From Botryllus schlosseri (lineage: Eukaryota), in NCBI GenBank assembly GCA_051294905.1, contig CM119372.1, positions 19,098,001-19,162,000 on the forward strand: 64,000 bases of DNA, written 5' to 3'. A program made the position numbers and the translations under genes. This document shows positions 20,759 through 52,455 of this stretch, piece by piece. Each line of letters begins with the position of its first letter. The stretch's first letter is position 1. The notes beneath the pieces were generated by a model, which saw only the letters and a program-made list of their open reading frames with translations, had not been told where the DNA came from and made no database searches.

Positions 20759-20764
20759 AATAAA
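20759..20764 (+). terminator. Polyadenylation signal of the cubilin-like gene
   Basis: AATAAA ~140 nt after the TAA stop at 20617-20619. Confidence 0.6.
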
Positions 20765-25073: not shown

Positions 25074-28000
25074 ATGAGTGCATTGCGCTTATGTTTTTTA
25101 TTTTTTATAATTCTTCAGCTATTACAAGGTGAGTAAGCTTTTCTGGTGACTTTACTGTTATAGCTCAAACGCATTACTTCGATATCATAAATTTGGTCAT
25201 TAGATGCGTCTGTTGCAATGCACTATGACTGCGCATAGAAATGATGCAATCTCCATCTACATGTAATATACGCGCTTTGTATAGAGAAAGAGAATTCATA
25301 TTTATTTTCGCCTGCACCATTGAGATACTGTGACGATGGAGATGCGGTACGACCTTTAAGAGACGTCATCTAGTCTGCACCACCGTATTTTTCTTCTTCG
25401 TGCTATCCGTAAATGCTGAGCGCCTAGCAGGATAGTCGCGGATACCAGTTTTCGAGTCTTTGGTCTTCCGGCCGGGGATTGAACCCACGACCAAGAAGCC
25501 GAACGCATCGCTATTACACTATCTCGCTCGGACTCCTCCTGTTTGGCGCATTTGGCATAGATAGACAGCAAAGTTCGTTCATTCATACAACAAATCGATT
25601 TAAGTCGAACCATTCCATCACCCTACGCCCCATCATTTCAACAGTAGACATCTAATATCTTTTGTACATTATCGGTAAACAATTTGTGATATCCCCACCT
25701 TCAGGTCAACGACATAGCACGCGGTACCATCCGCCAACGTTTTTTTCTGCTTTTCATTTGGCGCGTGGTGAAAAATAGTTGCCCATCCCCTGGTCCATCG
25801 TTTATATATTACCAACTTACGGAGTTAAGTAATCTATAATCAGTCACTCACTAATAATATATACTGGTGGTCAAAGTAGCAGAGATCGAAGTGCTAGCAA
25901 AATATAATAAACTTTGAGTAGGGTTCCTCATAGAATCACTTCGGAAAAAATTATTCAAGGTGATTGTACGATGTACGCCCATGCCACGTTCTATAGTAGA
26001 TACAATCGTACATTTAAATGGGCCGCTTTCCTGCCGACTGTGAGTCGCGCCACTCGAGATAATATGTGTCGATTAGCGCAATACCTTGAGAACACGTAGT
26101 CCTGTCCGTAATTACTAATTAGCGGTAATAGGCGTCACGCTTAAATATCCGTGTTAGCATCCGACTGATGGTATACCTCGATGATGCTAAAATCATCCTC
26201 AATTTATATGATATATCAATATCAATCAAGTAACAGGACAATTTTGGATGTGATACGAAGAAAAGTCAAGTATGAGCTCTGACCTCTTCCCTACTCATTT
26301 ACATATTTATTTAGAAATATGTTGAGTTGGCTTACCGAAAGCCCTATTGTCGGAAAATTCGGAAGCGTAATTTTTTACTTCCGTTGTAATAGTGATATTC
26401 GACGCATATGCACTCTACAGATATGTGAAATAGAGCTACTACGCACATTGTACTCAGGAATTAAATATCATTGTGGCATATTTCAGAAATAAGGGCGAAA
26501 TGTCCACACAATGAAATTTATCACCCTTACCAGCACCGTTGCTACTGCATACGCGGTTATACAAGACTTCACGGAAAACAATGCCTACGTAAGTAAAACT
26601 AAGCATGTCTTTTACAGGGCCTACGTGTAGCCCAAGAAAGTGTCATCCTGTCGAAAGTTTGTGTCATCTGCTAACCCGATCATTCACATGTGAATTGCAT
26701 TGAAGCCAATCACGCGTAGGTTATGTACTATCGTTCAAATGCTGACCAGTTGAAAATCACTGTATTGGAACGGATAGGCATGACAATTCGCGGAACCCGG
26801 CTATATAGGGTTACGAAGCAGACGCATTTAGAAGTTTTATGTATCATTGGTACTAAAAAGTCATTCTGGATTTCAAGTATAATGGCGGGGCAGCATATAA
26901 ATATGTAGCTAGGCCTATGAGTCTCAGTGTTACCTAACAGCAGTGTTGGGATCAAGTCACTACCTTCGAGTCACGAGTCATTGCACATTTTGACTCGAGT
27001 CAAGTCAAGTCACTCGATTTTTGGAGGTGACTCGAGTCAAGTCGAGTCAAGTCAAGTTAAGTCACGAGTCAAGTCACAATTCAAATCAAGTTGCCTTTTC
27101 GAATTATTAGGCTTAATTACGTCATTGCATTATGCTAGCTATGTCTGAAATGCAGATTGAGTGTTCATTGATTTTGAACCGATGAACAAATATGAAGTTA
27201 AATATATACACGCGAGAAGGTGCTGCATCGCTAAACTACGTAAGAATAATTGCATAGCCTCAGTTTATAGTTGCCAGCCAAAATAGAGAATAGAGAAACG
27301 AATATATAAGATGCAATACATTACTCATTAGGGCTCTTCAAAAATGACTTTTTTGTCAAATCGTACTGGCTACTTGATAAAATTGTTAGGTTACCTAATT
27401 TAAGCCTACACACAAAATTTGGTTCAATTCCAGCCAGTAACCGCTTTGCTACAGGAGAAGAAGGTTTCTATTTATTATATAAATATAAATAATAAAAAAT
27501 TTGAAAATTTTCTGTTCACCCCATGAAAGTGTTAGGCTCTCTATAGAAACGACGCTCACCAAATTTGTTTCAATTCCAACCAGTGGAAGCGGAGTTATTG
27601 CCGTCGAAAAATTTAGATTTGAATAAAATAGTATTTACGGTGACCGATTCTTTGTTTATTTATTATAATTGTGCTCACCGTAAATACTATTTTATTCAAA
27701 TCAAAATTTTTCGACGGCAATAACTCCGCTTCCACTGGTTGCAATTGAACAAATTTGGTGAGCATCGTTTCTATAGACAGCCTAACACTTTCATGGGGTG
27801 AACAGAAAATTTTCAAATTTTTTATTATTTATATTTATATAATAAATAGAAACCTTCTTCTCCTGTAGCAAAGCGGTTACTGGCTGGAATTGAACCAAAT
27901 TTTGTGTGTAGGCTTAAATTAGGTAACCTAATAATTTTATCAAGTAGCCAGTACGATTTGAGAAAAAAGTCATTTTTGAAGAGCCCTATTACCAGGCCTG

Positions 28001-31000
28001 TTTATTTTTGGATTTCTCCAAAAATAACTAAAATAGCTTAGTTTTGGATGTTTTCAAATTTTATTTTTGGAGAATCTCCAAAAATAAGAAATGAAGGTAT
28101 TTTTAGCCCAAATACTACATAGAAAACTTCACCGAAAGTATGTTATTATCATGTATTCATGTTCTTCTACACATCGACATCATCAGTGATCTTGATCTAA
28201 CTTTCTAATATTCGTCACAAAGTCTTTGGCCTGGAGAATGCCCTCCAAATAAAAATCAGTTGGTGACGCCCGGTAGAGACCTTTCTCCCAGTTGATTTTC
28301 GAGAAGTCGGCTTCGACCGTCGCAGTTGTGGGAAACATCGAGCCATGTGGGTCCAAAGAACTGTCGCTCGTCAATAATGCACCTGAAAGTGACGTCCATT
28401 TTGTATCAGACAGACATGGATTGGAATTGGTCTTCGATATTCTGTATCTACTCAGGTGTCCACTTGTTCGACAGCCCACCCCGGTGTTTGTCGATCAATT
28501 CACTGAGCTGCAAATAAAGCAGCTTACATATATGTATCACTGTTGTTTATATTATTAGAATCTAAAAGAGCAAGAAGTGTTTGTTCTGTCCTGCCTACGA
28601 GGTTGCACCACTTGATGTGGTAGACAGGGCAGAACCCTTTCATTGTCGGCAACTTCAATTTTCTTTATGCCGTCGATGAGCCCTGCTATAAAGGCTCCTG
28701 GCTGCCTCGAACGTGGACTGCTTCTCTTCTTCGTCGATATTCTCGAGAAGGTCGAGGACTGCACAGTGCGCACTCTGATCCTCCACGAAATTGCGTGACT
28801 CAGTGAACTTGATAGTCCAGCACCCTTTGACCAGAGGACCTTCCTTGCCGCGGGTGTCATTGTCCCAGTCCTCAGCGGGCACCGAGCTCGAAGGCGTTCG
28901 ACCAGGCGATGGAGCTCATCCTGATGCTCCACGATCAGATGACCAAGTCCCTGAATCTTTGTGACGGTAGTGCTCAGCTCTGTGGCCATGCGCTCGAGGA
29001 TGATTAGTTGGATCCACCACTGCAGCGGAGGTGCACAGGCCGGATTTTTATCGTTTATAACCCCGAGGAGTTTGGTACGTTGTCTAGTCAACCAAGTGGT
29101 CATCTTCTTAATTGACAACCAACATGTGTCTACAAACTTTAGGCACATACTTTTCTTTTCCTGGATCAAGTCCTGTTGCCGTTGGAGGTAGCCATTCAGT
29201 CCCATCATCGTGTGGACGAAGTTATTGTTGTAGAGGTGGCGGTATTCGGCCTACGTCACAAGGTCGCGCCCGCCCCACACTAGCACGATTTCATACCATG
29301 CCGCCTCTTCAACCCTTGTCGTGTCGCCTCTAATCCTTCCAGTAAGTGGAAGTACTTTTAGCGTTTCGGAGACCCCCTCCCGCTCACACATGCTGATTTT
29401 GTGTGTGTTTGTGAGTTTCCTGGTTGTTTTAACAGTATTTACACTGCTCTGACTCGTACATTTCACTAAAAAACTTGAAAAAACATCATCCAAAAAAAGC
29501 TTATTTTTGGATGTTTTCAAATCTTATTTTTGGAGAATCTCCAAAAATAAAACCAAATATCCAAAAATAAACAGGCCTGCCTATTACCCATTTACAAATT
29601 GATATGATACAAATTGAGCCTGCGACAATGGTTGAGGACTATATAAACTATATTCTAATTCAATCTCAATAGAACAAGAGGTTTGGCTACGGTAAGAACA
29701 GAGAACAGAAAATACATTTTGCTATTAAATGACTTTACTATACTAGTTTACGACAACGTAGGCAAGCTTCGATCACTTCGTTTGCGGTCAATTTATTTGT
29801 GAGAGAACAAAGGAGGCTCAGTAAAACGCACGATCATTGAATGGTTGGTCGCTCTCACGGGTTACACCAGCGTTTCGCGAACAATACGAACATATGCAAG
29901 TTACTGTGATTTTTATCGACCCCGATTACTTGCTGGTGACTTGAAATTGACTCGTGAAATTTGCTCCGAGTCACGAGTCAATCCACATTTCTGATACGCC
30001 GAGTCAAGTCAAGTCAAGTCATTTTAGCAAAGTGACTCGAATCAAGTCAAGTCATACGAAAAAGTTGATTCGAGTCAGACTCGAGTCATCCCAACACTGC
30101 CTAACAGGGGTTCTATTCAAATGTGTTGTAGCAGGAATCAGGCTGTAAAGTCGTTTACCTAAACGTTGTTCCACTTCAGCTCGACGACTTTGCTCCGGGA
30201 AGAGATGTCCCATACATAGCCACTGCGAGCACGGTGTGTGCGTTTGCGATGCTGGCTGCCAGAGGACTGATGGTGTATGTAGGCCTACAGGTAAGGGAAT
30301 CACATCGCAAATTAGCCTATAGCTAACATTTAATGATTCCAATCCAATTCTGTACATTTCGCATAGTCGCCTTTCTAATTAGGCATGTTCGTAGCAGCCA
30401 TGGGGGGATTACATCATCAATGTAACCGAAACTGCAAAATTTCGATGAAGTCGATTAAGATTGCGATTGTTCGGAAAACAATCTCTATTACTCATCATTG
30501 CATATATTTTGCTTGACTCGAGCCTTGATTACACCGAAAAACAATATACTACGATTGTGATGAGAATGCCGATGAGAACTATTTTCGTTTTAGACGTTCA
30601 AAAATCATGAAGGTGCCCACCACCTACAAACTAGAAAGCACTTGATAGCGGACTTCTTGAACCAAGTACTCCCATTTTTAAGCCTGAAATGCAATAGTAA
30701 TTCAACGATAATATGCCCTTATTTGGCGGTTATTACTAGTCTGAATTTATCTAGGTAAACCACGACCAAGTGGTAGTAAATAGATCATAGAAGCTCATCG
30801 AAGTATAGTCATAAATAGTTCACGATATGGTTTCAACTGTGAACTCCGAAATTCATACGGAAATGTTTTGCACGGGAGTTGTTGATTGTTTGACATTTAG
30901 CATACTGTAGTGTAGTAGAAATGTCACCAACACACAAGATATAAATAGATGAACAATCAGAACGTCTGCTGTGGAATTCGGTGACCACATTCACGGCTAA

Positions 31001-34000
31001 TTCGGATATCCTTGAATTTACAGCGAAGCTTTCTTGTGCCAACCATCATTGCGGTCAATTCAGTCATTGTGTAATGAAGGGAAATGCTCCAAGGTGCGAA
31101 TGTGATGAAGGCTGTGACATGATTGCAGATGGGACATGCAGACGTAGGGTGCCAGCAGTCGAATCGACCCCGTCGCCAGTGAGTTGTGTAGTGATGCTGA
31201 ATTTACGTTTTAGCGACTGACCCTTGCCGAAGTGTGCATTGCCCCAGCAATACTCAATGCGTGCGGCATTTGGATGTAGCACTATGTCGTTGCATGGAGG
31301 GATTTACGATGACGAAAACTGGTTGTAAAGGTACGATTTTATATTTCTTAATCACATTATACAGTGACGATTGAACAGGGAAGAACTGCAAGCAGTTGAA
31401 AAGCATTTCTTCATCAAAATTATTAATACCCAGTACCAACCAATACTTGTCTTTATTATGTAGTAAGATTGTAAAATGTACGTCATAGCTACATTGAAAT
31501 ATGCAAAACGCATCTAAGCTTCATCACGTATAAGTCGTAGATAAACTAAAATAATTCGAACACTTTATTTTTCACAAAATTTCTGTACGAGCCCAAATCA
31601 CAAAATATTATATGAGAATATTTCGCTCTGAAATATTTCTGGGCGTTTTGTTTTCAAAATCAATGCGGCCAAGCTAAATGTGGTCGCCAGCTTTCAATTA
31701 GGGTGATCACTGGTCACGGTCAGTGTGGTGTCTTGCCCGATTGGCTCAAAAATAAAAGCGTTGCGCATGATCTGAACACTTTCAAGTAGGGATGGTGTGA
31801 ACGTGAGGTTCACGTTCGCGTTCTGTGTGTGAACCTCAGAAATTTAGAGGTTCACGTTCACAAACGAACCTTGGTAGGTTCTGCTCTGTGAACCTTTTAC
31901 ATATATTACAATTTCCCCTTCATTATAACATCTTTGGTGGAAATTTATTGCATTTCAACTGCGGGCCACTTTGAGCACAGTGCCATAAAAAACAATCAAC
32001 ACTAAACGAGCATGCATCTTGACAATCTCAAAATTTTTACTTGCTTAGTTACAAAAGTTTGCTCGAAATATCTAGCTTTCCTTTCATGAATATTTAGTGA
32101 CTATCAGCTGTGAGTTTGACCCGCAATCACACAACACCAAGAGCGAAATACACTGCGTGTAGGTAGTCTCCTAATGATGCTTATTGTGCCAATCAATGAA
32201 ATTGATATCGTTGTCTGATGTAAAAAATCGAACTAGCGTATGGGTTCAATCTTGATTTGATATGTTTATTGTATCATAAAAAAACAAAAACAAATTCATG
32301 CGATTGGGGTGTTGGCTAATGCTGTGTAACCTGATAATTGGGTAATATCGGTCGCAAGTATAGAAACCCGTTTTACACTCTGCTCAATATCAGCGTAGCA
32401 ATACTCAGACGCCAAATACATTGTCCGGTCTGGCCTAGACCGTTAAGGCGTTATTTTATATTCCCTTGCAAGTCCTCGTCGAAGGTGTTCGCAAAGTGAA
32501 GGATGTTGGAAATATGCGGCGCAAGTCTGCGCTAGGTATCAAGTACTGAATACTGATGTACATTAGGCTATCACTACACTGAAATACAGGGTTGAAATTA
32601 GCAATATGACGTCACGTGACGTCACGAGGTTCTCGTTCGCGCTCACACCGAACCTTTCAATAAGGTTCGTGTTCACACGATCCTGAACCTTTCAGAGGTT
32701 CACACCATCCCTACTTTTAAGCACCAGAGTAAGGGTTAATTGAACCACTTACTCCCATGTTTAAGCCTGAAAAACCTAGCAGTGCTTCACGCGATCGGCG
32801 CTATAAAGCGTGGAACAGTTTGTATTTTGCAATGCCAACCTTGACTATGAGAAAGTAGGTCAAATCACGGACACGTAAAGAAGTACAGCCATGAATTGCC
32901 CAAGACTCCTCGAGAAGCCTCCATATTATAGACTTTCAGAATCGATGTGCAATTCATACCGAAATGTTTGGTAGGAGAGTTGTTGATATTTTGACATTTG
33001 ACTCACTGCTTAGGAAGGGTTGCAGACAGATAACGTACTTGTAGAACAAGGGCGTGCAACTTCTTCAGTCGGCGGCGGGCCGGACATGAAAAAATGAAGT
33101 ACTTGGCGGGCCTGATTCCTGCGTATTTATCCACCTATACAAGGATTAATCGTATTCAATGCACACTTCAAATTTGAAGAATATACCCAAGCAGTACCTG
33201 TGGCCGATCATATTGTGTACCTGTACAGGTTCTTTGAACTCCGGCTGCATGTCGGACACAAAGAAAATAAAGTACTTATTTGTGTCTGAATAAAAAGGAG
33301 GAAAAACCTAGAGTCACTATAATTTGACGTTATTATTATTATTATTGTGGAAAATTGCGGAAGACCGTGACCGCCGGCCATATTATCATTGAAGAACGAA
33401 AACTGTCTGGGGCCGCTCAAAATCACGCCGCGGGCCGTATGTTGCCCGTCCCCGAATGTAGATGAACAATTGAACATAGAGAAAATCAAATTCCGTGATC
33501 AGAGCTTCGGCCGTGGACTTCAAGTAACCACATTCAGGGATATGCTTGAATTTACAGCGAAACGTTCGTGCGCCAACTATCACTGCGGTCAATTCAGTCA
33601 TTGTGTAATGAAGGGAAATGCTCCAAGGTGCGAATGCGATGAAGGCTGTGACATGATTGCGGATGGGACGTGCCGACGTACGGTGCCAGTGCATTCGACC
33701 CCGTCGTCAATGTGTAGTGACGTTCAGTTTGCGTTTCAGCGAGAGATCCTTGCCAAAAATTACGTTGCCCCAGAAATAGTCAGTGCGTTCGACATTTGGA
33801 TGTTGCACTATGTCGTTGCCTGGAAGGGTTTTCGATGACGAAAACCGGCTGTGAAGGTACGTTGACGCGTTTATTTTACAGTTATACTTGGTTTTAGTTA
33901 GTCACGTTATGCAATAATGATCTGTGGAACACGAAAAGAAGTGCAGGTATAGTTGCAAAGCATATCTGCACAATGAATTACTTATCTCCAGGCCGTGTCA

Positions 34001-37000
34001 TTTTTGGCATCCAAAATTACCAAAAATAGCTTATTTTTGGCATTTTTCAGATTTTATTTTCGGGTTGTTTGAGAATGCAGCCTGAAGCGGGCGGTAAACT
34101 CCATCTAAGACTGAATACGGTCGCGAGACCGATAGCGAACAAGTACTGACATTATTGACATCGCCGGAAATTCGTACTTGTATACTCGAATTAACGATGT
34201 CAAACAATGTATTCTTTAATCTTTCATATCAAAAGTAAGTCACAAAACGTGCAATATCCACTTTGTGTCATCAAGCAGCGAGAGTGAAGACCGAATTGAG
34301 AACGGTGTTGGAGAGTCAATTCACCAAATACAAAACCGACCGACTGCTTCTGCAATATCTAATCCGAATAGTCGATTTGATATGCGTGCATAATTACTTG
34401 CATTCACACAATACCACTTATGATAACAATTCAAAATCGTTGCTGACACGTTTGAATCATCGCCCTTCACTCTCGAACCAATGGTAAGATATCACGAGTG
34501 GCTTCAAAATTTAATATAATATGAAAAAATATCCAACGGGCAAACAAAAAAGCAGTAAATGACTGAACGTTTGCAAGCCTGTGTATGGTACGCATTGATA
34601 GGCGTTGCGTCTTTGCGACTGAGGCATTTTGCACTGTGAAGTGTCTATGTTCAATTGTTCATTGATGAAACTATATCCCTGTTCTCCAACGGGACACATT
34701 CGATCAGTGATTGCACCATATGCTGACATTTTCATTAACAAGTTGAAGGTAAATGGAAGTATATATACGCATTGGCCTAATGCAGCATGGGTCGCGCGTG
34801 CCAGCTACATTGAGGTAACAAAATGCACGAGCGGCGACAATGAAAATGCCTAGTCATCGAGTTACATCCCTAATTATTGGATATAATTTACCACCCGGGT
34901 TGATCAATCCACAGTATATCTTAAATCCAGATTTCAGTACTAAACTTTTTGGCCTCGACCCTAAGATATTCATTTGCATTGCATGTTATCTCCAATACAA
35001 ACCGATACGTGTCTTTATTACGTACAGCACATGAAAGATTAGATATATTGAAATACGCACAGGAGTATATTAGCTTCATTGCAGAAAAGAACGAAAATTA
35101 TTTGGCCGCTGTAGTTTTCGCGAAATTTCGGTAGGAGCCAACATCGTAAAATACTAAATGATCTCGCTTCGCCATGACGTTTTTCCGGAAGCTAATCTTG
35201 AAAACAGCTTACCATTATATCTATAGACTTGTGAATGGACGTGATATTAAAAAGGTCCGATGCATTATGCATTTCTTCTCTGCAGTAATTCAGATTATGG
35301 AGTCACTTCTATGTTATTGTGAGTTTTGTTATTTTTGAGCCGTATTTTTAAATTCACGGAACCACCGTACCATGTTGGGCCGGATTTCCGGCTGGACTTT
35401 TTCATTTTTGGCCGAAGCCGGATCGGCCGAGCCTGATACGGCCGGAGCCGGATTGGAGCCGGACCAGAGAATTGGCGAACCGGATCGGAGCCGGACCAGA
35501 GAATTTGTCGATCCGCTCCACATTATTAGATATGCCCTCAGATCACAGACTCTGTGACATCAAATTTGTCACTAGCAATGTATAATTGTACGACGTACGT
35601 TGATAATATAAGAATTCATTATAACAAGCGATAGTCAAAACTCAAAACAATGGTTTTCTGTTGAGTGTAACTACGTCACTACACATGCACTTTACCTGCA
35701 CCGGACTGCAGGTTGCCAGTTTGCTTAACAGCATTTACGCATTTAGCTCAAGACCCGTGTGCGAATAAGATATGTCAAAAATACAGCCACTGCCAAGCTC
35801 GCGGTCAGCGAGGGATATGTGTCTGCGACGAAGGATGTGACATGACCTCGGATGGAACTTGTCAACGTATGAAAAATTGGGCTATCACGTAATTCATTCA
35901 CGCGTTGATAGTGATATTACATCTACAGCGGTGAATGCGTGTTATGGAGTGACCTGTCCATCAAATTCGATTTGCAAAGTTAGAGACGATATTCCGACTT
36001 GTTTTTGTCATTCTGGATACCACATGACGCACGAAGGAGTTTGCGATAGTAAGTTGAGATTATAGTGTCTTCTTTGCTGTCAGTTATACCGTTATGTTTG
36101 TTCGCAGAAGCTAATCCTTGCGCCAAACATCGTTGTCCTGCACTCAGCCACTGTAAACTTATATCGGGAAAGCCGTCGTGCGTGTGCGACGACGGTTGTT
36201 CAAGGGGCCCTAAAGGGACCTGTAAACGTAAACGGAATACTTTATATCCAATTGCTATATGGTGAGGAATTTAATTTAACTTGTAGGAGATCCAGTCGAT
36301 CCATGCACAGTGAAAGAGTGCGAGGCCAACGAATTATGCGCCGTTTACAACGGAAACGCCTATTGCGTCTGTAAGGCGGGATATGTGAAAGACAATTTCA
36401 AGAAATGCACCAGTAAGTGCCGAGGTCCTGATAATATAACAGAGGCGGTCAGTAACAAAGTACTTCTACTTAATCAATGTACCCTAGTATAGGGTTACCA
36501 TACGCCCCCTTTTAAGAGGATTTGTCCTCTTTTTTTAAAGTGTCCTCGGAGGACGCCCTTTTGTCCTCTTTTTTGAGAATGTTGGTCATATTTATAGCAA
36601 AATTCGACTGAGATGCCGTAAATCAGCACCGAAGTGACGCTCCGGCGGGTATTTCGGGAGCTGAGTGGAAAGTTGACCTCTTTTTAGTCAACCGATCACA
36701 AAGTGGGAAAATTTACCATTTTTTGAGAATTCTCCTCTGGTTTTGCAAGTCTGAAAATTCTGAAAAAGTGTCCTCTTTTCAGATTTCCAAAATATGGTAA
36801 CCCTACCCTAGTAGGCTTGGTGTACTTGCAAGTATGTATATTTTGAGACTACTACCACTGCTTGAACATTTGTTTAGGCAGATCTACTTACTTTCCACAC
36901 TTCGGATTCTGAGAAGTTGAATGTATAGTTTTGAGATACGGTTGCATGCCTCTTATGTTAACCTCTTGCAATAGGCATTGCACCAACTGTCGAATATATC

Positions 37001-40000: not shown

Positions 40001-43000
40001 GGAAATGCATTTAAAACGCAGATATGCAAAATATTTGTTATACTGCTTTTTGTTGTTGTTTATTTTAGTCTTGAGCACAGATATATTAAAATACCATCTA
40101 CAATTACAATATCCGGATCATTTACATGCCTGCGCACGACATAGAATGACCCAAAATCTTACTATTTGTATATTCGGGAAATATTTACACGCGTCATTAG
40201 TTTGAGTAATACGTTGAAGTTTGATATCGCATATTACCGCTACTTTTAGCGCTGGATCAAGCTACATCGTCTTCCGAAAATAGTTATGGCCAGGCTATTA
40301 TGAAGTATTATTTTTAAACGGGGCTTTTACTGACAACAGGGGTGTTTAAAAACATGACGTATTTTAAATACAACCCTGGTTGCAAAAGTAATTTGGTAAA
40401 ACAGCCTTCGGACTTTCACTTGTCGATAAATCAGAACAATTTGGTGAATTGTGATACGAATCCACACGACCAACGCCTATTGACTATTCGTGCTATGGAT
40501 GAATATAGGTCCGACCACATAGACATATAGTTGATGTAACGATTTCAGTGATAGAGTTAATCGAAAAATTACTAGAAAATATTTTAAGTCGTTTTGCGGT
40601 GGTACTGAAAGTCGTGTATTACCGAAAAACAACTTGATAAAGCAGTTTGAGAGAATAGTAGAGGTTTTCTATTCAGAATTTGACCACTGCAAAAACGGAA
40701 GACGATGCTCCGACAACAGTTATTGCAACAAAGACAAACATTGCTTCTGCAAGGAGGAATATCACCGTGACCAGCACGGTCACTGCGTTCGTGAGATGAT
40801 GATTAGTGACGCAAATGAAGAGATGCCTATGTGAAACGATATTTTGTTGTACAGCGAATGATCCATGCCGGAACGTAAAATGCCATTTCAATCAGCGCTG
40901 CTACGCCCCACCACACGCCATGATCGGGATATGCAAGTGTCCGTTCGGAACTATTTATTTTCCCGTTTTGAAGACTTGCATCCCACTTCCTTTACTACGT
41001 AAGTACGGATTCTGATCTTGTGTATCGTAAAGACAGCCGGATCACGGCACGATCTTATTTATATTTGATAACCTTGTCACTAAACTTATCGTCGCGTGCT
41101 ATCAGGACACGGTCGACTATTGATAACTAACCTACGTTGGTTAGCTATCTATAGCTATTCGGACGTGGCCGGTCTGACGTTTTAGCATTAGAATATGTGA
41201 TCCCAACTGCGAATCAAAAAATTGATCTAACAAGCGTAGCCTGTACTGTCAGACGTGATCCAGTTTGCAATTAAGAAGTCATGCATGTTTAAAAGATGTA
41301 TTTTACTTTTTTTCGTTTGGTACTAGTCATGACGTCAACAATCTTCAATCGTGACATCACAGTGGATTGGCATTGACAATTTAAATTATAGGTTACATAT
41401 GACTCCTTTGACGAAAAGGTTGCCGATCCGTCTTAAACGGACCAAATTATACCTTGTACCAGAACTATACATCGTTTAGCAGTTGTCATCAGCATCAGAA
41501 CTTCCATTCCGTACCAATGATGTATAACTTTAAGTCTAGCTATAGCTGTTGAATCGACGGCGATTTTGAGGATTCCAACCATTCGATATCGTATATGTCT
41601 AATATATCGGGTGCAAACATCCGTATAGGCTCATACTACATATTTTTCGAAAGTATTTACACAATTGTGGCAAAATTATGCAACTTTTGAAACCCCATTT
41701 GTTTTAAATGCAACTCTACGTGTTTCACTTGGGATTGGTGTTTGAATCACCGTGGTATAGCCAGGGGCGAATAGTGTATCATGATATTAAAATATGTTGT
41801 TCACATTCTTTACAGTGAAAAAGGGTAAATGCAAAAGACAGAAATGCCCGGAACACAGTCGCTGTGAAAAGGAGCAATGCATATGCAACACGGGATACAA
41901 GAAAGTTGGGAATAAATGCATTCGTATGTTCTATAGTATACCCATCAGATTTAGTCCGACGTCTGAAAGTTGATTCTGGTTTATGTACACCACAGAAAAA
42001 GATCCGTGCGTCCCTAGCCCGTGTCGGAACAACGGAGTATGTATAGCAAAGGGATATAAATACGAATGCAAATGCCCCGAAGGATATTTTGGGAAAACGT
42101 GCCTGTCATGTAAGTCAGATTTGTCTTCACGGTTAATGGCTTGCAATGACAACCGTTAAAAAATTGCTCTTTATTCCAGCCAACTCGCCTTGTCATCCGA
42201 ATTCCAATCCCTGTAAAAATAGAGCCGATTGCATCAATCTAAACGGAATGGCTATTTGCAAATGCAAGTACGGTTATAAAGGGAAGACATGTGAAGGTGG
42301 GTCCGTTGATGGATTTAGCTCGGTTAGCGTCACACAAACTCTTACTTGAGTATGAGTATCGACTGATATCACCAGCAAGTCTTTTAACTGATTTATATAT
42401 TTACTAGTGTGCAGTCTTTAGAAACCTAGTACAGGGTACATTATAACAATTATTTCAATATTATGAATGCATGCCCTTGGTGACACTTGTAACTCAACGC
42501 CCAAACTATTTGACACTACTACTACTACATTGCCTGTCCGTTTTTGGATAATACTGCAGGCTAATTCTCATTGACTTATGTGCTGTGCAACTGTGTATTG
42601 TGCGTCTCAAGTGTCAACACGTTCTTTCGTTTTTATTATGTTTTTGGACCGATCTGGGTGTTTAATAGGTTGACTTCACCGAATCTTTTCGACTGCTTTC
42701 TCTATTTTCACTGTATCGCAATCTGGCGGTGTTTTGAATAGATAAAAAATGATATCAAATTCATATAAAAGAAAAGAAAACGTACGTTGTACATATGTAC
42801 GTTTTCAGCAGGCCTACGATGTATACAATCCAGTGTATACACGATTGTAACTTGAGTACTCTCTCGCACTTTGGAAGACACCGCATACAATTCCTTGATT
42901 CTGACGAGATTATATTACCTACTCTATAGTATTTAAGCCAGCTTATACTTAGTTATCTAGAAACGTTTTTGTTAGATCGATGTTTCATGCGGTTTCAAAT

Positions 43001-46000
43001 TCACAGAAATGCCGATTCGATGCTCGGAGTCATCCTGTCTTAATGGAGGACTCTGTTTCATGGAAACTTGGAAATCCGTCGGATGTAAATGTCCCAAGAA
43101 TTATCACGGAAATACATGTGAAGGTATAATTTTTGAATACTCTTTACATCGCCGACACGATAAATTCATTGTGGGTATTGAAGGAGTCGGCGGGAGACTG
43201 TGTAACCCTTCTGTCATACTTAAAAAGGCACATGCCGTTGCTACTTAATTGAAAGAAGAAATAGGGTAGCGGGATATCGCGTAGTGGTATGATCAACAGC
43301 TGCAACACCAATAGGTCTACTGAGGTCGACTCCAGAATCCCTTCCCAAGTGTTGGAGGTTTATCTAGGCTCCTTCTCGCCATCTAATCCACGTAATCGGT
43401 GTCTTAAAAAAGTATAGAAGTTGGCTGTGCTACAAGTCGGCAGCTACGGAATAAAAATGAAGAATATCGGTCTGGTATATATGACCATTTCGGTCGAAAA
43501 GCATCATGAATACCACAAACCACAAAAGTACAAGCATTGCCGTAAATTCCAACTCAATTATTAGGAGCAGGTCATGGTATGGTACAGACATGGGGTGATT
43601 ACTTCATGAATGTAATCGATTGCGATTACGATTACTTCTGAATGACGCGATTACGATTACGATTACGATTACAGCAAAATCAAGAAGTAGTCGATTACGA
43701 TTACGATTACATTGGAAAAGTAATCACGATTACTCACGATTACATTTATTTTGCTTCTTAGAAGCTATGTTGAAAGACAATATATGGATTGCGCTGAAAA
43801 GGCCTAATGAGATAGCAAACTCCCTTTAAAAAGATGCGTCATCTGTTTGTTACGTCATAATGTATCCATTGCCCATTTTCATAGAGGTCAATTTATCGCG
43901 CCCAACGATTTGCATTCTTACCAGGGCTATAACTGCCGCACCCCAAATTTCCCAATAGGGTGGAGAGCGAGCTCGAAGGGGACTCAAAAAGTATTTCGTA
44001 AACCAACATAAGTTATAGAGTATTTTCAAGATATCTAATTAACTTGATAATCCTCTCTAGATCAATGATTGCCAACCGCGGATCCGAGAGCCGCATGTGG
44101 CTCTCAGCTAACCAACTTCCGGCTCCCCTTGACGTTGGAAAATCCAACAAAAATAATAAAAAATCAATCTATAACAAAAAATTGATATTCAAAATTTCAC
44201 TTGCTTTGCTTGGAATCTGGAGTTTATAATTTAGGGTGAAGACCAATTCCTTTGGTGTCGAGTAGCGATTCTCTACTCAGCAACGATTTCGTTACTCGAC
44301 TCACGTCAAAAAGTATGCTCACACACAAATGCGTCTGGATCGTCACTCAAATTTAAGTCTGCTCATCACCAGACTTAATTAAGTGCAGGGGGTGTTACAA
44401 CACGTTTTATAGCGCTATCTGACCAGCAAACCAATGGATTATTTGACTTGATTGTTAAGCTCAACGGCCGCATTGAATGAATGCTTTTCAACCATGATGA
44501 AAATGTTTTCAAGTCCTATTATAGTTAATGTGGCCACTGACCCTATAGTAATTTACAACTTGAGTTGCTAGACATGCAGTCAGATATAAAGACATGACAA
44601 TTTGTTTATGCGTCTCACGAAAGTTTTTCTTTTAGTCTGCTACGTTTGAGCCACTACAATATCTTTTGATGATATAACAAACCGGAGTTCACGAATTAAG
44701 AACATATACTAAAGTAATTATAACAAGAAACCAGAGGTCATAATTATGAATTACGTTGCCCCAGCTCTACAGGTAGGTAATTGTGTGGCGAGATAGCGCA
44801 GTGGTATAATCCACGGCTGCAACACCAATGGGTTGCGGGTTCGAGTCTGAACGAGGTCGACTTCGGAATTCCGACCTAAGTGTTGGGGGTTTATCTAGGC
44901 TCCTCCTCGCCGCCTCATCCACGTAAGCGGTGTCCTAAAAAAAGCTTAGAAGTGGGCCGTGCTAGGTGCTACAAGTCGGCAGCTACGGAATCGAAAATGC
45001 ATAAAATCGGCCTGGTGAAAATGTCTGAGGTAGTCGACAAACATCATGATTACCTCAAACAAATAAACTCTACGGGTATATCTAACCATCGCGGGCTGAG
45101 AGAGGATTAAAAATTAATAGTAATATATTGCAATTACTAAATTTCTTGACGAAATTCAGTCTTCAATTTGAGATTACCACCCTATGGGGGCCAAAGACCA
45201 ACGTTTAGACTGGGGGACGAATTGCTGTTTTTGTCCTGGTTCCAGCTACAACCCACGCTATCATGATATATAAGGCCACGGCCATGGCGGCAGGTCCCAA
45301 TGTTGAATAAAGAATTATGAAATAACGATAGGCGCCCCTTTCAAGTAGAGTCATATGAGAATAAGACGATGCGAACATAAAATTCTGCCTTCAACTTAAT
45401 ACAGATATTGTACTGCAAGCTGCCGTTACGAGAAATGGCAAAACGGCTCGCCTATGATGTATATATCACCAGCTGTTGATTTTTACTGCTTGGTGGTGGA
45501 AACTGCAATGTTTTATTTGACGAGTACAAAATTTCAAATCTTTGTCCGGTGTACGTACGTACTGGATAGGCCTACTGCTCGCCAAGCAGCAACGGTCAAA
45601 CTGCGTTTAACTAAGCATAAGCATAACCATAACCAAACATCAACACACAAGGTACTATTTTAAACTATAGGCAGAGCGGAGATAAATTATACTGCTGCGA
45701 GGTAGTGGCGTGTGGAACGCGTTGATAACCTGATATACAGCATGGCGGGTGTTCTTACAATCAGACTAATGGACGACGTAGGTACATCGAATATCTATTT
45801 ACTGTGGATACTTCTTACACAATGACGCGCAAAGCTAATAGGCTGCTTCTGACGTAATAATGAGCAGTGGCGTTTGAAAATCAGACGTTTGTGCTGTCAC
45901 GAACCTGGTATAACGAACCTGGTATAACATCTTTTCCTTGTTCACGAATGTTCAGTTTATGTCATAGTCCTTGTACAAATAAAAAGTAATCGTTCTTTCA

Positions 46001-49000
46001 CAGAGAAATCGATTAGATATGGGGAGTAGTCGATTACGATTACGATTACTTCGGAATTTTTTCGAATGTAATCGATTGCGATTACGATTACTTGAAAATG
46101 CTGTAATCGTCGTAATCGATTACGATTACTAATCACGATTACCCCATGTCTGGTATGGTATGGAACGGTAAATGTCCATACTCCATACCCGCCTTAATCG
46201 TTCCATACCATACTTCCTTGCATACTTTCATACATTGCATACCGTACTTTAAAATTTCGATACCATACCCTACCATGCCCTGACTAGAGGTAGCAATTCC
46301 CAAGACATATCAAAACTATACTTCAACCCAAAGTAGAATATATAGGCATAAAAACACCCAAGTATACAGTCTAAGAAAGTAGATTTGCCCAAGGGATCGA
46401 ATAATTTCAATGGTTATCGGATATGGCTATTTTCAAAATTACGAGATGTATCTTCACGATTAACGCAAATGACTAATGACGCTATAATACACTCCTAGCA
46501 GAAGAGTGCGTATTCACACCCAAAGGGCTGAAAAGGGCGGTACGCGAAAACAGAACCTAAGTCAGAATTATATATCCTATACACCTTTTACCTTCCTACG
46601 TCCTTACGTATAAGCATCAGTGGGATAAATATGTTGTGTTTGATTTATACCGTGTTGTTAGTCTGAGGTAGGTTCTGGTTTCGTTTACCACGGGTGTATA
46701 TTCACACTCTTATCTCACGGGGGTATACAGGTGTAAATACACCCCTTTTCCGATGAGAGGTAGGTGAATATGTTGAGTCGATATGACACAGACACTATTT
46801 TGCGCGATTCTTATGATAATTTCACCCATTACCTCATCAGTATTACATTCACGGTTTGACTTATTGTAGGTGCGCGTTTTGCACTTCTACAATAAACAAG
46901 AACTATATTCGATAGAGTACAGAGATCCTTGCGTCGGATATCGCTGCGACAGAGGAAAATGCAATGTTGTTCGCGGTGATCCTATATGCGACTGCCATCC
47001 CTTCTACTCCGGGAAGCATTGCAGCGGTAAATATATGCTCTTAATTATTATTATTATCAACTTGTGCAATCCGATATCAACATCATATCTTGTCAGTTTA
47101 CAATGACCCGTGTGGATCTTATCGCTGCGTAAATGGGGATTGCCATTTAGACGCATTTCAACCGACCTGCAAATGCCATCGCCTATATTCCGGAGCGCAT
47201 TGTGACGGTAAGACGTTGATAAATCACGAATAAATTGGCGACAACGTTGACACGCAGTAAAATTACAGTGTATGAAGATCCGTGCAAGGACTATTCATGC
47301 AATACCGGTGCATGCGTACTGGAGAATTATTCACCGGTCTGCAGATGTAACGCAGATTACAGCGGGCCTCATTGTGAAAGTAAGCGAATCTTGTATTGCG
47401 CGAAATTACCCACAGCAAAAGTTGAAGTTTGTATCTTGTTAATGAAAACAATATGGAATTGAAAGAGACTCATAGTAAATTGCTCAATTTTCTTCATACT
47501 GCTTATAACATTGAATGGCTTTGTTCAGCGTTCAATGATCCTTGCTTTGACGTGTACTGCCAGCACGGGGTGTGCCACAACAAGGGTGGATTCGCGGTCT
47601 GCGATTGTTTCCCAAACTATTCTGGGAGATATTGCACAGGCAAGTTTGGTCGTCGATTTTTCCCATTTGTGAGATCTCAAATAGTCGATTTCATTGCGAC
47701 TATCATTCATGCAATTCTGACCCTTCTTTATCCAAACGTCTTTTGATGAGGCTTATAATATATTTTTGTTCAGATTACATCGATCCGTGCAGAGATTATA
47801 ACTGCGTAAATGGATACTGTGATGCCGGTGATGGTGCTGCTACTTGTGTATGCGATGCTTCGTACTTTGGTCAATACTGTGAAAGTAAGCTGTTAGTGAT
47901 TGGATTTGTGATATTGCCATCAAATCACAATGTTAAATTGATTATGGTGCTGTTGCTTTGGTGATCCTAAATTCCTATTCCTAAATATGATAGTGGGGTT
48001 ATGCAATAATACAATGTCTAATGATGAATCGAGAGCCTGTAAACGGCAGCGCGGTGGTGACGTCTGTAGACAAAAGCTAATTGGTACTTTGACGTCACAA
48101 GGAGACCTTGGTGCTGTAATTGCCTGATATCAGACTTTGTCAAACTACTGGATTTTCAAAATTAGTAGCAACTTATACCAGAACTAGAGCTGCTCGCTTT
48201 TAAAACTAAAAACTAGAAGTAGAGCTACTTATGTGTAATCCACATATGCTGGTCAGATTTTTGTTTACTCCATAAGACACGACATTGAACGGCGAAGTGA
48301 AACTTGAAATGCCGATTAATTATTACGTACTATACGAAACAATCGACAAGGCTACAACGACGATACTATCCAAAGAGCCGTACATCGCAGCAGCTGTGGG
48401 TTCTGCCTGCAACAAAAACAACCATTACAGCTACCATAGTACTAGATCAGATTATAAGGATTCATCATTTATTTCAAAAATATTTCAGAGTATGACGACC
48501 GGTGTGACACGTACGGCTGCCAAAATGGGTTGTGCATGATAGTTCACGACTCCCCTAAATGCGATTGCTATGGTTCATACACTGGAAAATACTGTGAAGG
48601 TAAGTAGGCCATAGAGCTCATCATCATGCATTAAACAGTTGCAACCCGGTTCCACTTTCGTCAGTTTATGAAGATCCGTGCGAATCTTTGACATGCCAAA
48701 ACGGGCACTGTCAGACAATATCCGGAACCGCTAGCTGCATGTGTGATCTTTTCTATTCTGGGGAACATTGCGAAGGTAAGATGCTCATAAAAGCAAACGT
48801 AGGGATGCCCTGTCACAAGTTTTGTTTATTTTAAGTGTACGATGACCCGTGCTTGAATGCGCCGTGTCAGCACGGACGTTGTGAAATCATATCAGGATTT
48901 CCTGGCTGCGAGTGTGATCCTAATTACACTGGAGAATTTTGTGATCGTAAGTCTATCCGGCTATTAGCTAGTCTTCTCTGCACCAATGATTGAAGCGCTT

Positions 49001-49454
49001 GAGAAGTATACCGCATAATCTGCCGTGCTCTATATTGACTAATAAGCCTAAAGCGCACACTCAGGCGCACTCAGTTTTAAAAGAATGTTATGATCCATCA
49101 CTAACGGCCACGACGCATAGGCCTACGCCATGAAATCAAGGAGGAGACAATATGAATAATGATTCGGGTATGCTAGTGCGAGGGAACTGAGTGCACATTA
49201 CACTGATTACGGTGTTCGCTTTGCTAATTACCTACTTGGTAATTGAACTTTGGCGTTAGGTTATTGACCGAATCCTGCGATTTGATCTCATTACCGAGCA
49301 GATTACGCTTAGCTAAGCGCCCCAGCTACGGTAAATTTCACCGATCACAATTATAATTCCCGGACGACCTTTCATTGCTGGAGACGCCACCAGATAAAAA
49401 TCGTGTTTTGAAATGCGGTTGGAGTAAGTTATTTTCCTTACAGAACCGGTTTGA
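25074..49454 (+). CDS. Secreted multi-EGF-repeat protein (~1142 aa): signal peptide, 4-Cys half repeat, 28 EGF-like repeats; no transmembrane or other domain
   Basis: Exons: 25074-25128 (MSALRLCFLFFIILQLLQ, signal peptide), 26487-26588, 30180-30290, 31024-31143, 31214-31330, 33558-33677, 33740-33856, 35747-35866, 35929-36048, 36108-36227, 36287-36412, 37327-37446, 37510-37635, 39118-39246, 39356-39463, 39559-39663, 40677-40790, 40855-40998, 41816-41923, 41996-42109, 42180-42296, 43007-43123, 46916-47026, 47097-47207, 47269-47379, 47529-47639, 47774-47884, 48489-48599, 48665-48775, 48836-48946, 49444-49454 (Q-P-V-stop). Every internal exon is phase 1-1, a multiple of 3, stop-free and encodes one Cys-rich repeat. 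The terminal exon is the least certain part. Confidence 0.85.
25358..25533 (-). mobile_element. tRNA-derived SINE, possibly with a Meta-type central domain, in intron 1 of the EGF gene
   Basis: Minus strand has A-box-like TAGTGTAATAG and B box GGTTCAATCCC, followed by ACCAAAGACTCGAAAACTGGTATCCGCGACTATCCTGCTAGGCGCTCAGCATT. Confidence 0.65.
27329..27988. mobile_element. Foldback / long-TIR element with ~315-bp near-perfect inverted arms and a ~31-nt spacer
   Basis: 27329-27643 is the reverse complement of 27675-27988; TSD TTACTCAT / TTAC[family E insert]CCAT. Confidence 0.9.
27993..29579 (-). mobile_element. Internally deleted hAT transposon, family E relative, with transposase remnants
   Basis: TIR CAGGCCTGTTTATTTTTGGA / TCCAAAAATAAACAGGCCTG; 8-bp TSD CCTATTAC. 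Confidence 0.9.
28183..29208 (-). pseudogene. hAT transposase fragments (frameshifted and interrupted)
   Basis: GYLQRQQDLIQEKKSMCLKFVDTCWLS...NPACAPPLQWW...KIQG...LPHQVV (28555-29208) and SMFPTTATVEADFSKINWEKGLYRASPTDFYLEGILQAKDF (28183-28345), paralogous to 23347-23766. Confidence 0.8.
30637..33988 (+). repeat. Intragenic tandem duplication of a two-exon EGF cassette with flanking intron sequence
   Basis: ~30637-31435 aligns to ~32719-33988; exon 31024-31143 vs 33558-33677 is 38/40 aa identical. Confidence 0.85.
31787..32713. mobile_element. hAT-type element, family D (GTGAACC/GGTTCAC subterminal repeats), copy 1
   Basis: TIR TAGGGATGGTGTGAAC / GTTCACACCATCCCTA; TSD CTTTCAAG/CTTTTAAG. Confidence 0.88.
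33989..34060. mobile_element. Solo terminus of a family E hAT element
   Basis: CAGGCCGTGTCATTTTTGGCAT plus CCAAAAATAGCTTATTTTTGG subterminal repeat, matching the ends of 21155-24112. Confidence 0.75.
34060..34146 (+). pseudogene. 28S (LSU) rRNA fragment from the conserved 5' core; not a functional rRNA gene
   Basis: TCGGGTTGTTTGAGAATGCAGCCTGAAGCGGGCGGTAAACTCCATCTAAGACTGAATACGGTCGCGAGACCGATAGCGAACAAGTAC matches the conserved eukaryotic LSU segment between D1 and D2; flanks are not rDNA. Confidence 0.88.
36490..36805. mobile_element. Family C MITE
   Basis: TIR TAGGGTTACCATA / TATGGTAACCCTA; 8-bp TSD CCCTAGTA. Confidence 0.9.
38649..38922. mobile_element. Family G MITE
   Basis: TIR CAGAGGTGATCA / TGACCACCTCTG; 8-bp TSD ATGGTATC; homologous to 19036-19296. 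Confidence 0.9.
43268..43525 (+). mobile_element. Degenerate copy of the tRNA-derived SINE seen at 44776-45067
   Basis: Shares GCTGCAACACCAAT, GTTTATCTAGGCTCC, GCTACAAGTCGGCAGCTACGGAAT and CATCATGA; B box deleted. Confidence 0.7.
43585..46152. mobile_element. Family B element, copy 2, inserted in a small ATGGT-repeat MITE (~43568-46282)
   Basis: TIR CAGACATGGGGT / ACCCCATGTCTG; 8-bp TSD GTATGGTA. Confidence 0.9.
44776..45067 (+). mobile_element. tRNA(Cys)-like SINE inserted in family B copy 2
   Basis: A box TAGCGCAGTGG, anticodon-loop-like CTGCAAC, B box GGTTCGAGTC, A-rich tail; 11-bp TSD CTCTACAGGTA/CTCTACGGGTA; empty site in copy 1 near 12708-12718. Confidence 0.85.
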
Positions 49455-49759
49455 CAATCGATTGCCTACCAGACTGCTGCCAAAACGAAAAAGGAAAAGC
49501 CGTTAGCGAGAGAGCTCCTGCTGCCATTGTTAACAAATTGACCTGGATCTATCATTTCGATTATCGGCTATAGCGCGTATAACTTTCTTTGTTGTTCTTC
49601 CTTTGCCGAAGTAGCATCAGATCGAAATTTTAATACAGTGGAAATAATGTGGTTCAAGTATTCTTTTATAGTATGCTGCTGATGGGTGTCTGATATGTAT
49701 CAATCAGTTTCGCGCGAAACGCTTTTCAGGCCAATGAGAATTCTAGGATTCGAGTAGGC

Positions 49760-50927
49760 CAGGGGTCGGCAAACCCCGGCACGCGTGCCATTTGTGGCAC
49801 GCGAGATGATTTTTCATGGCACGCCAAATGATTTGATGAACACGACATATTATAACCATGTTTTGTTGCACAATATTTCACATAAGCTTTCAAAATGGAA
49901 AAAAGCTAAAATTATTAGATAAATCATCATAATACAGAGCCTTTTGGGGGTAGATTTTAGTTATCCTGAACATTTGTTCGCGCTCCGCGCGATCTACCAT
50001 GACCTAATTTCTTGATTTTTGAAAATCCACAAGATATATATAAAATACGGCAACCTAATATCGTATGAAGCCGTTTGGATGTGCAGCCTGTGGGACCGTG
50101 AATATTTTATATGAACCAGCATTTTGGCGCTGGGCATTTTCACCCTAAGAGACACACTTTTCGGCACCATGCGAATCCGTAGGCTGTGTGCGTGGTCAAA
50201 ATGATTTGGGGCGATAAAGCATTTAATAACCACCGCTTGTTGGCCAAAACGTCTAAGTGCTGAAATGACCGGCACGAATAGTCCAGCTCCCGCTGCTTGA
50301 GCCGGACGTCTCAAAAGAGACCCATACAGGAAAATAATGAGTCCAGTGTCGAAACGCGAATTTGGAATTGTGTTCGTCTCATGAAAGGATATATTGTTTT
50401 AGTTTGGTCTGAAGCTACGACAATAACCTTCACCGCTATACTGCGATTTTTGGAGCTTTGTAGACAAATCTAATGCCACACCAACTTGTTATGATATCAA
50501 ACCGACTCGCATGATACAGGGGTTGTCACATTTTTATCATCAGACCATCTCATCATAACATCTTTGATGGGCCTGCAACTTATTGGCTATATGGTACCGA
50601 ACACAGTAGACTTGGTAACGATCAAGGCAACCACAGGAGATCGATTATTACCTGACTAAATATAGGCCTACGTGATGCGCATATTTTTTGGCCTATATTA
50701 GGTGGCAGGTCTAGTGCGGCAGCGACGAAAATTTATACTCTTTGCGACCAATACTGTAAGAATCACTGACGTAACCGACGCCTTTGCCGGCTGCAGATGG
50801 GTAGTTGGTGTGATTCCTCGCTTTAAACGCTAAATACCAAAACTAAATATGGTTGGCACGCCAGTTGGTAATATTTTACAATTTTTGATATATTGGTACG
50901 CTGCATACGAAAGGTTGCCGGCCCCTG
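49760..50927. mobile_element. hAT (Charlie-like) non-autonomous element
   Basis: TIR CAGGGGTCGGCAA / TTGCCGGCCCCTG; 8-bp TSD GAGTAGGC. Confidence 0.88.
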
Positions 50928-52047: not shown

Positions 52048-52455
52048 TAGGGTTACCATATTTTGGAAATCTGAAAAGAGGACACTTTTTCAGAATTTTC
52101 AGACTTGCAAAACCGGAGGAGAATTCTCAAAAAATGGTAAATTTTTCCCACTGTGAGGAAAAAAGGTCAACTTTTCGCACAGCGCCCAAAATACAGTTTT
52201 TTCCTTCACATTGTCAGGTGGTTGACTAAAGAAAAAAGGTTGACTTTCCGCTCCGCTCCCGAAATACCCGCCGGAGCGTCACATCGGTGCTAATTTACGG
52301 CACCTCAGTCGAATATTGCTATAAATATGACCAAAACTCTCAAAAAAGAGGACAAAATCTCAAAAAAGAGAACAAAAGGGCGTCCTCCGAGGACACTTTC
52401 AAAAAAGTAAAAAAGGAGGACAAACCCTCTTAAAAGAGGACGTATGGTAACCCTA
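52048..52455. mobile_element. Family C MITE
   Basis: TIR TAGGGTTACCATA / TATGGTAACCCTA; TSD TCATGTCA/TCATATCA. Confidence 0.88.

Follow-up and report, generated by a model that had tools for sequence, protein, structure and literature searches.

A gene on the forward strand of a 64,000-nucleotide (nt) window of the Botryllus schlosseri genome (GenBank assembly GCA_051294905.1, contig CM119372.1, positions 19,098,001 to 19,162,000; coordinates below are those of the window) was found to encode a predicted secreted protein of 28 tandem epidermal growth factor (EGF)-like repeats, five of which carry a seventh cysteine. The gene is real and spliced. It is apparently undescribed, as no published account of the protein was found in a search that left out supplements and most subscription papers, and its function is one that we infer. 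In the reading we favour, to which we give an even chance, the protein is a structural rod built of EGF-like repeats only, which links up by means of spare thiols, with charge as a possible second factor, and acts as a cohesive or scaffold part of an extracellular layer.

A preliminary description of this DNA had proposed a spliced gene of 31 exons hidden among fragments of open reading frames, and an independent reconstruction, based on splice sites around cysteine-rich frames, arrived at the same model. In six-frame translation, the cysteine-rich pieces were confined to the + strand between 26.5 and 49 kb, and phase-1 splice sites were then set around them. The resulting model has 31 exons on the + strand, from the ATG at 25074 to the TGA at 49454, with a coding sequence of 3429 nt and one stop, giving 1142 amino acids (aa) and approximately 127 kDa. 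All 29 internal exons are in phase 1/1, have AG acceptors and are divisible by three in length, while the donors are GT in 29 of 30 cases and GC in one (after 47639). Six-cysteine patterns were found 28 times on the + strand, never on the − strand, and never in any of 200 base shuffles. The protein thus has the composition described earlier, i.e., a signal peptide (predicted from hydropathy), a half repeat (a four-cysteine module in exon 2), 28 EGF-like repeats and a stop, and the duplication of one-repeat phase-1 exons is the best explanation of how the gene was built.

What the preliminary description had overlooked is the seventh cysteine in five N-terminal repeats (exons 3, 4, 6, 8, and 10). 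It takes the position of the aromatic in the G-[FY] site, where the other repeats mostly have Tyr or Phe after a conserved Gly, and seven-cysteine repeats of this kind were seen in none of 183 proteins fetched for comparison. Exons 4-5 and 6-7 are a duplication (81% DNA identity) under purifying selection (ratio of nonsynonymous to synonymous substitution rates, dN/dS, 0.13), and the seventh cysteine is kept in both copies. After the signal peptide the chain has 177 cysteines, an odd number, and at least one thiol is therefore unable to pair within the chain. The five extra cysteines offer a more concrete cross-linking route than tyrosine does, and odd-cysteine EGF repeats of NOTCH3 have been reported to form more multimers (PMC8991201).

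The RNA mapping covered positions 33400-53399, with exons 1 to 5 outside. Two data sets (X1 and X3) were contigs from two studies whose RNA origin was guessed and which were judged by exon-only coverage; two others were raw RNA reads, of which ~6% (X21) and ~3% (X19, single-cell) were sampled. One joint of the model was displayed, 47636 to 47771 (three ambiguous bases), corresponding to intron 26; it was present in X1, in X3 and in six X21 reads, whose first mates all lay on the − strand, the orientation that a + strand transcript should give. X1 and X3 covered exons and skipped introns in those repeat-free bins that were tested. Depth times length equaled model exon bases times contig depth in 5 of 7 exon-bearing bins in X1, and likewise in 5 of 7 in X3, with excess depth in the remaining two bins of each. 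In one X1 contig (record 6), of 1447 nt and with a depth of 23.8, exon 26 is preceded by 811 nt, which equals exons 19-25 plus 22 nt, and exon 22 is covered by an X1 contig of the same depth. For an X3 contig (record 8), both the length and the bin depths agree with exons 13-22 and an additional 77 nt. From this arithmetic of depths and lengths, the long-loop, canonical basic and acidic blocks of the protein (see below) very probably share one transcript across a 3.8-kb intron. Further upstream, exon 9 lies under an X1 contig with a depth of 10.4, equal to the depth at exons 12 and 13. The depth of the bin with exons 6-7 is uninformative because a 28S ribosomal RNA (rRNA) fragment swamps it; this fragment lies in intron 7 (34008-34153, +; Rfam RF02543), and reads run on into rRNA at both of its ends. 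A word search with exon 18 gave no candidate, which is weak evidence. Splicing is demonstrated for the 3′ two thirds of the gene, and lack of expression, which would have spoken against the model, does not apply. Two oddities were also seen in the contigs. At exon 9, an X1 contig has reciprocal Asp-to-His and His-to-Asp differences at 35985 and 36009, and an X3 contig starts at 47044 within intron 23 with 171 unmatched letters ahead and excessive bin depth; low-complexity sequence or a different allele might account for this.

The preliminary description had stated that the protein lacks transmembrane (TM), ZP and lectin domains, a claim that depends on where the transcript ends. The X1 and X3 contigs extend 81 and 142 nt, respectively, beyond exon 30. 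These extra bases lie outside intron 30: the bin depths there were 5.22 (X1) and 2.29 (X3), compared to 5.21 and 2.28 expected if the intron sequence is spliced out and 8.1 and 4.49 if it is used. Read-through of intron 30 was therefore rejected, as was an in-phase hydrophobic tail at 49192-49260 (acceptor score −4.1), which is uncovered in both X1 and X3. The acceptor at 49444 scored highest among 734 downstream AG sites, and the bin after it had depths of 25.9 (X1) and 10.8 (X3), near those of the transcript contigs (23.8 and 10.4). Because this bin also holds a short mobile (inverted-repeat) element, whose copies may add reads, and because the joint between exons 30 and 31 was not directly displayed, we regard an end via 48946 to 49444 as likely and not as demonstrated. 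In this model, four residues follow the last cysteine. No Pfam family matched any of 78 downstream + strand segments (at least 42 aa; 15 kb downstream) or any of 75 intronic + strand segments (at least 45 aa), and neither the introns nor these 15 kb showed a TM, ZP or lectin exon. The absence of such domains thus holds within the window, given the presumed last joint, and the Pfam, acceptor and depth evidence speaks against a transcript that runs past 48946 into TM, ZP or other domain exons. A transcript continuing past 49454, with an assembly domain or membrane anchor encoded outside the examined stretch, would be compatible with the indirect evidence for the last joint and with the in-phase hydrophobic stretch; we consider this improbable, given the rank of the 49444 acceptor, the lack of downstream Pfam matches, the spliced-out depths over the hydrophobic stretch and the transcript-like depth right after 49444.

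The spacing between the fifth and sixth cysteines is 10 to 12 residues in exons 3-19 (17 repeats) and 8 residues in exons 20-30, with the switch at 41996, exactly as first described. Linkers between repeats are 3 to 11 residues long, mostly 5 to 7. Pfam EGF-type models reached the curated cut-off in 8 of the 28 repeats, and most of the others were weaker matches. AlphaFold models of the exon 8 and exon 23 repeats had mean confidence (pLDDT) values of 89.5 and 80.5, and EGF modules were the top rows for both in PDB comparisons, none with an E value ≤0.001; together with the six-cysteine spacing in all 28 repeats, the models place these in the EGF-like class and predict an EGF-like fold. Patterns for O-fucose, O-glucose and calcium-type hydroxylation were present in 0 of 28 repeats. 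The first 17 repeats had been described as rich in Lys, Arg and His, and the net charge of exons 3-19 is indeed +41 (isoelectric point [pI] 8.72; 8.2 for the whole protein), exons 12-19 forming a basic long-loop block, but 5 of the 17 (exons 4, 6, 8, 9, and 11) have a net charge of zero or less. Exons 20-23 are still basic, the repeats are acidic from exon 24, and the charge per repeat falls from mostly positive to −6. The best charge split lies after exon 23 (permutation p 5e-5, an overstated value since the last eight repeats are paralogues and not independent). The protein therefore keeps the basic front and acidic end proposed for it, with the charge switching after exon 23 and not at the exon 20 loop switch, and consists of three blocks in which the charge boundary is distinct from the loop boundary.

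The last eight repeats (exons 23-30, the C-block) were proposed to be Tyr-rich and largely acidic. The count of 27 Tyr in 296 aa was reproduced and the block is acidic overall (net −25, pI 4.56), acidity beginning with exon 24, but four alignment columns account for 23 of the 27 Tyr, and 8 of these 23 occupy the usual aromatic position of EGF repeats. This bears on the idea of an adhesive like mussel foot protein 2 (mfp-2, or mefp-2), in which C-block tyrosines would be hydroxylated to 3,4-dihydroxyphenylalanine (DOPA) and cross-link a larval or adult glue. The C-block has 9.4% Tyr, while the canonical repeats in 14 proteins fetched for comparison have 0 to 8.3%; ascidian adhesives are reported to contain EGF-repeat proteins such as APAP-1 (PMC12817120), and tunicates are reported to have tunic phenol oxidases (PMC9395347). 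Like mfp-2, the Botryllus protein is predicted to be secreted, is nearly EGF-only and has a Lys-rich part. However, mfp-2 is described as having 11 repeats and ~45 kDa (PMC5911496), a basic pI of 9.14 (PMC11697411) and ~5 mol% DOPA (PMC11697411, PMC5911496), whereas the protein here has 28 repeats and 127 kDa and its Tyr-rich block is acidic. EGF-mediated adhesion has moreover been described as largely DOPA-independent (PMC11697411). With the tyrosines mostly in repeated columns, the adhesive reading of the preliminary description found no direct support, and a DOPA-type glue seems to us rather unlikely. The idea that the acidic Tyr block acts in the manner of thyroglobulin was also dropped, the Styela precursor being described as built of Tg1 domains (PMC12992692).

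An extracellular rod is suggested by the predicted secretion, the short linkers and the absence of signalling marks, and the gene model, composition and domain searches support the proposal of a secreted, EGF-only, charge-patterned protein of this kind. Since small disulfide-bonded modules would be joined by short linkers, the secreted chain should be elongated, and it would most likely be placed in the tunic, a mucous sheet, an attachment matrix or an egg or embryo coat. As terminal assembly domains were not found, joining would probably proceed through the five spare cysteines of the exon 3-10 repeats, by intermolecular disulfides between rods. The basic front three quarters might also attract the acidic last seven repeats and so help assembly; alternatively, the basic part may bind a polyanionic polysaccharide. 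Charge pairing is possible, and salt in seawater would weaken it. A more ambitious version, which we hold to be unlikely, is a polar EGF fibre that assembles itself into a polymer of the ascidian tunic, glue or coat: head-to-tail charge alignment would be locked covalently by the five retained cysteines, and the assembly code would lie within the EGF repeats, with no dedicated assembly domain. In well-studied marine tandem-EGF proteins, assembly depends on DOPA or on lectin, avidin or ZP domains at the ends, and a domain-free, charge-graded protein of the same size with spare cysteines at one conserved position would be a simple test case for polymerisation of EGF arrays. If the proposal is true, selection can retain odd-cysteine EGF repeats, although they are harmful in NOTCH3; should assembly not be shown, this is another lineage-specific secreted EGF protein.

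Among known proteins, our best reading by analogy is that the rod would work most like octovafibrin, mfp-2 or APAP-1, without terminal assembly domains. Octovafibrin, a structural fibre of the Octopus bimaculoides egg thread, is described as a ~135-kDa protein with 29 tandem non-calcium EGF repeats, a uniform 8-residue loop between the fifth and sixth cysteines, and N- and C-terminal C-type lectin domains through which it assembles (PMC10336842). Compared by description only, the Botryllus protein shares predicted secretion, a similar size, the 4-5-8 spacing of the first four cysteines and the tandem non-calcium repeats (28, none with a calcium pattern), and differs in its two loop types, five extra cysteines, charge gradient and lack of end domains, with no Pfam match to a C-type lectin in intronic or downstream segments. 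The Ciona papilla adhesive protein APAP-1, reported to have multiple EGF-like domains and a cohesive role (PMC12817120), is likewise an ascidian multi-EGF protein, but its recombinant form is 47 kDa; this comparison, too, is by description only. Cohesive or load-bearing roles for tandem-EGF proteins have been reported in octopus threads, mussel plaque, scallop byssus (Sbp9) and Ciona papillae (PMC10336842, PMC12817120), bcbp-1/2 are further structural comparators (PMC11697411), and ascidian attachment proteins are said to be poorly described beyond Ciona (PMC12817120).

Relatives were sought among 1.84 billion representative sequences with a profile built from the 17 long-loop repeats, which gave 1212 matches, of which 150 were listed and 22 of these named. 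The best among the matches listed was a DOMON-containing protein of Styela clava (XP_039262363; P0001), and two more Styela proteins, XP_077966975 (P0155) and XP_039271453 (P0023), have the same repeat type. These predicted secreted proteins, so far unstudied, are automatically named fibropellin-like, tenascin-X-like or ced-1-like. All three resemble the Botryllus protein in their signal-peptide-like N termini, long-loop EGF/EB-like repeats and lack of a TM segment; P0155 and P0023 are basic and Tyr-rich, and P0001 has a charge gradient. However, they have DOMON (P0001, P0023) or TIL (P0155) domains, have neither the seventh cysteine nor a canonical block, and their repeats do not match in collinear order (P0001 is 26% identical); the repeat type alone is shared. 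P0001 was rejected as the window's own protein, as no tblastn match reached 70% identity. P0022, a gene call that read through introns, is 85 to 88% identical to exons 14-16 and may, judging from sequence, be a close relative, a divergent allele or a paralog. A C-block profile matched 15 generic EGF proteins (SNED1-like, Notch-like, Slit), none an ortholog, and no full-length ortholog was found with this profile or among the listed and named matches of the long-loop profile. No mussel protein occurred among the matches bearing names (most of the 150 listed had none), and mfp-2 itself was not compared. Some of the fetched proteins, from spiders and others, also combine both loop types, the ESM Atlas gave generic EGF/EB/DPY leads only, and in a tree of the repeats, mostly unresolved, 2 of 25 branches were starred.

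Nor did orthologs from the Notch, fibropellin, tenascin or VC70 families, named in the preliminary description as possible homes for the protein, appear among the listed and named matches of the profile searches. All of these share tandem EGF-like repeats. Notch has TM, LNR and ankyrin parts, fibropellin has C1s-like and avidin domains at its ends, which serve its assembly, and tenascin has FN3 and fibrinogen domains. In the repeats and the intronic and downstream segments, we found no TM segment, LNR/ankyrin or DSL domain and none of the 28 repeats with calcium, O-fucose or O-glucose patterns (Notch and its ligands), no CUB (C1s-like) or avidin-like domain flanking the repeats, the CUB gene upstream appearing to be a separate one (fibropellin), and no FN3 domain or fibrinogen globe (tenascin). 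The ZP and TM domains of HrVC120/VC70 were likewise not found within the window, given the presumed last joint. CREMP/DPY modules are reported to have four cysteines and to lack the third EGF disulfide (bioRxiv 2025.09.16.676614), whereas the 28 repeats here have six or seven.

Several observations weigh against the structural rod joined by spare thiols. Four of the five spare cysteines could pair within the chain, or they could be capped. Exons 3 and 4 lie outside the RNA-mapped stretch, exons 6, 8, and 10 were not individually displayed in RNA, and the last joint is indirect. The charge gradient, whose permutation value overstates the independence of the C-block repeats, is not unique either: Styela P0001 has a split of 12.8 compared to 13.35 here, and one (P0032) of 49 fetched proteins with at least 10 repeats switches charge sign. 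Finally, exon depth in X21 was low (two exon-bearing bins had 0, and the highest value was 1.38) and in X19 it was near zero, depths that do not fit an abundant structural protein in the samples concerned. The low depth would suit a soluble signalling, recognition or defence protein instead, either an array that binds glycans or microbes multivalently or a precursor from which EGF units are cut, as in Hemps and Ci-meta1. The basic repeats are His-rich (5.8%; the median for 109 long-loop arrays fetched for comparison is 2.0%) and could bind anionic surfaces. Ci-meta1 is said to have calcium-binding EGF repeats, for which the pattern is absent from all 28 repeats here, and the linkers are short. 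EGF arrays have been reported to bind N-acetylglucosamine polymers (PMC11697411) and Ciona to have chitin gut membranes (PMC6109156), but the passages of the latter source on the gut-membrane proteome name MACPF, VCBP and mucin and not an EGF-only protein. We therefore see such a soluble role as a real but minor possibility.

An egg-coat or gamete-recognition protein like HrVC120/VC70, attached by disulfides instead of a ZP module, was also considered. Ascidian vitelline coats are reported to use EGF arrays (PMC4523013), one X3 contig differed from exon 18 at 7 of 144 bases, and in the fold comparison of a C-block repeat, an EGF module of an egg-coat filament ranked first, a match that was not significant (E 0.064). 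With no ZP or TM domain, and with the eight displayed exon differences divided into 4 synonymous and 4 nonsynonymous, too few to demonstrate diversifying selection, this reading has only a slim chance. The structural rod thus remains the reading we prefer. The features of the gene are collected in Table 1.

Table 1. Features of the EGF-repeat gene, in window coordinates
Feature	Position	Strand	Basis or remark
TATA-like element TATAAAA	24994..25000	+	80 nt 5′ of ATG; putative function
Exon 1, hydrophobic N terminus, predicted signal peptide, 18 codons	25074..25128	+	Strongest hydropathy windows begin at residues 1-6
Exon 2, four-cysteine module C-x12-C-x-C-x11-C, His/Tyr/Arg-rich	26487..26588	+	EGF/EB resemblance weak
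Exon 3, long-loop EGF-like repeat, seventh Cys at codon 30257	30180..30290	+	Cysteine pattern
Exon 4, seventh Cys 31113	31024-31143	+	Cysteine pattern
Exon 5	31214-31330	+	Cysteine pattern
Exon 6, seventh Cys 33647	33558-33677	+	Cysteine pattern
Exon 7	33740-33856	+	Cysteine pattern
Exon 8, seventh Cys 35836	35747-35866	+	Cysteine pattern
Exon 9	35929-36048	+	Cysteine pattern; X1 contig coverage
Exon 10, seventh Cys 36197	36108-36227	+	Cysteine pattern
Exon 11	36287-36412	+	Cysteine pattern
Exons 12-15, long-loop repeats	37327-37446, 37510-37635, 39118-39246, 39356-39463	+	Gene model
Exons 16-19, long-loop repeats	39559-39663, 40677-40790, 40855-40998, 41816-41923	+	Gene model
Exons 20-22, canonical EGF, basic	41996-42109, 42180-42296, 43007-43123	+	Pfam EGF above curated cut-off in 3/3; RNA
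Exons 23-26, canonical EGF, 111 nt each, Tyr-rich	46916-47026, 47097-47207, 47269-47379, 47529-47639	+	Gene model, RNA
Exons 27-30, canonical EGF, 111 nt each, Tyr-rich	47774-47884, 48489-48599, 48665-48775, 48836-48946	+	Gene model, RNA
Exon 31 coding part, Gln-Pro-Val-stop	49444..49454	+	Top-scoring acceptor; presumed joint
Probable 3′ untranslated region, end not fixed	49455..50074	+	Bin depth; short inverted-repeat element overlaps from ~49760

Some further features lie within or close to the gene. A decayed EGF-like exon at 26618-26750 (+), 29 nt past exon 2, has an acceptor score of 8.4 and four EGF-spaced cysteines followed by a stop, and is possibly a pseudo-exon or a short alternative end. 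Extra EGF exons at 51130 or near 50164 were rejected, as neither has a six-cysteine pattern and the profile score was 7.7 bits or none. Intron 2 contains a long palindromic element (27329-28095), followed by an open frame of 231 codons on the − strand (28555-29250) that had no Pfam match.

Elsewhere in the window, a multi-exon, cubilin-like CUB-repeat gene occupies 1-20619 (+), with Pfam CUB matches in 5 of 7 segments tested. It has an apparent stop at 20617-20619 and an AATAAA near 20760, and it appears to end at its own stop, separate from the EGF gene. An intronless gene at 57221-58543 (−) encodes a BTB-BACK protein of 440 aa without Kelch repeats, for which two distant homologs (21 to 34% identity) were found. 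Within the span of the EGF gene, two copies of an element resembling a short interspersed nuclear element, with what we take to be tRNA-type boxes, lie at 44779-45060 and 43260-43520. At 44785, 59 X21 reads had loose ends, the consensus of which presumably resembles a template-switch adaptor, suggesting that this family is transcribed from its 5′ end.

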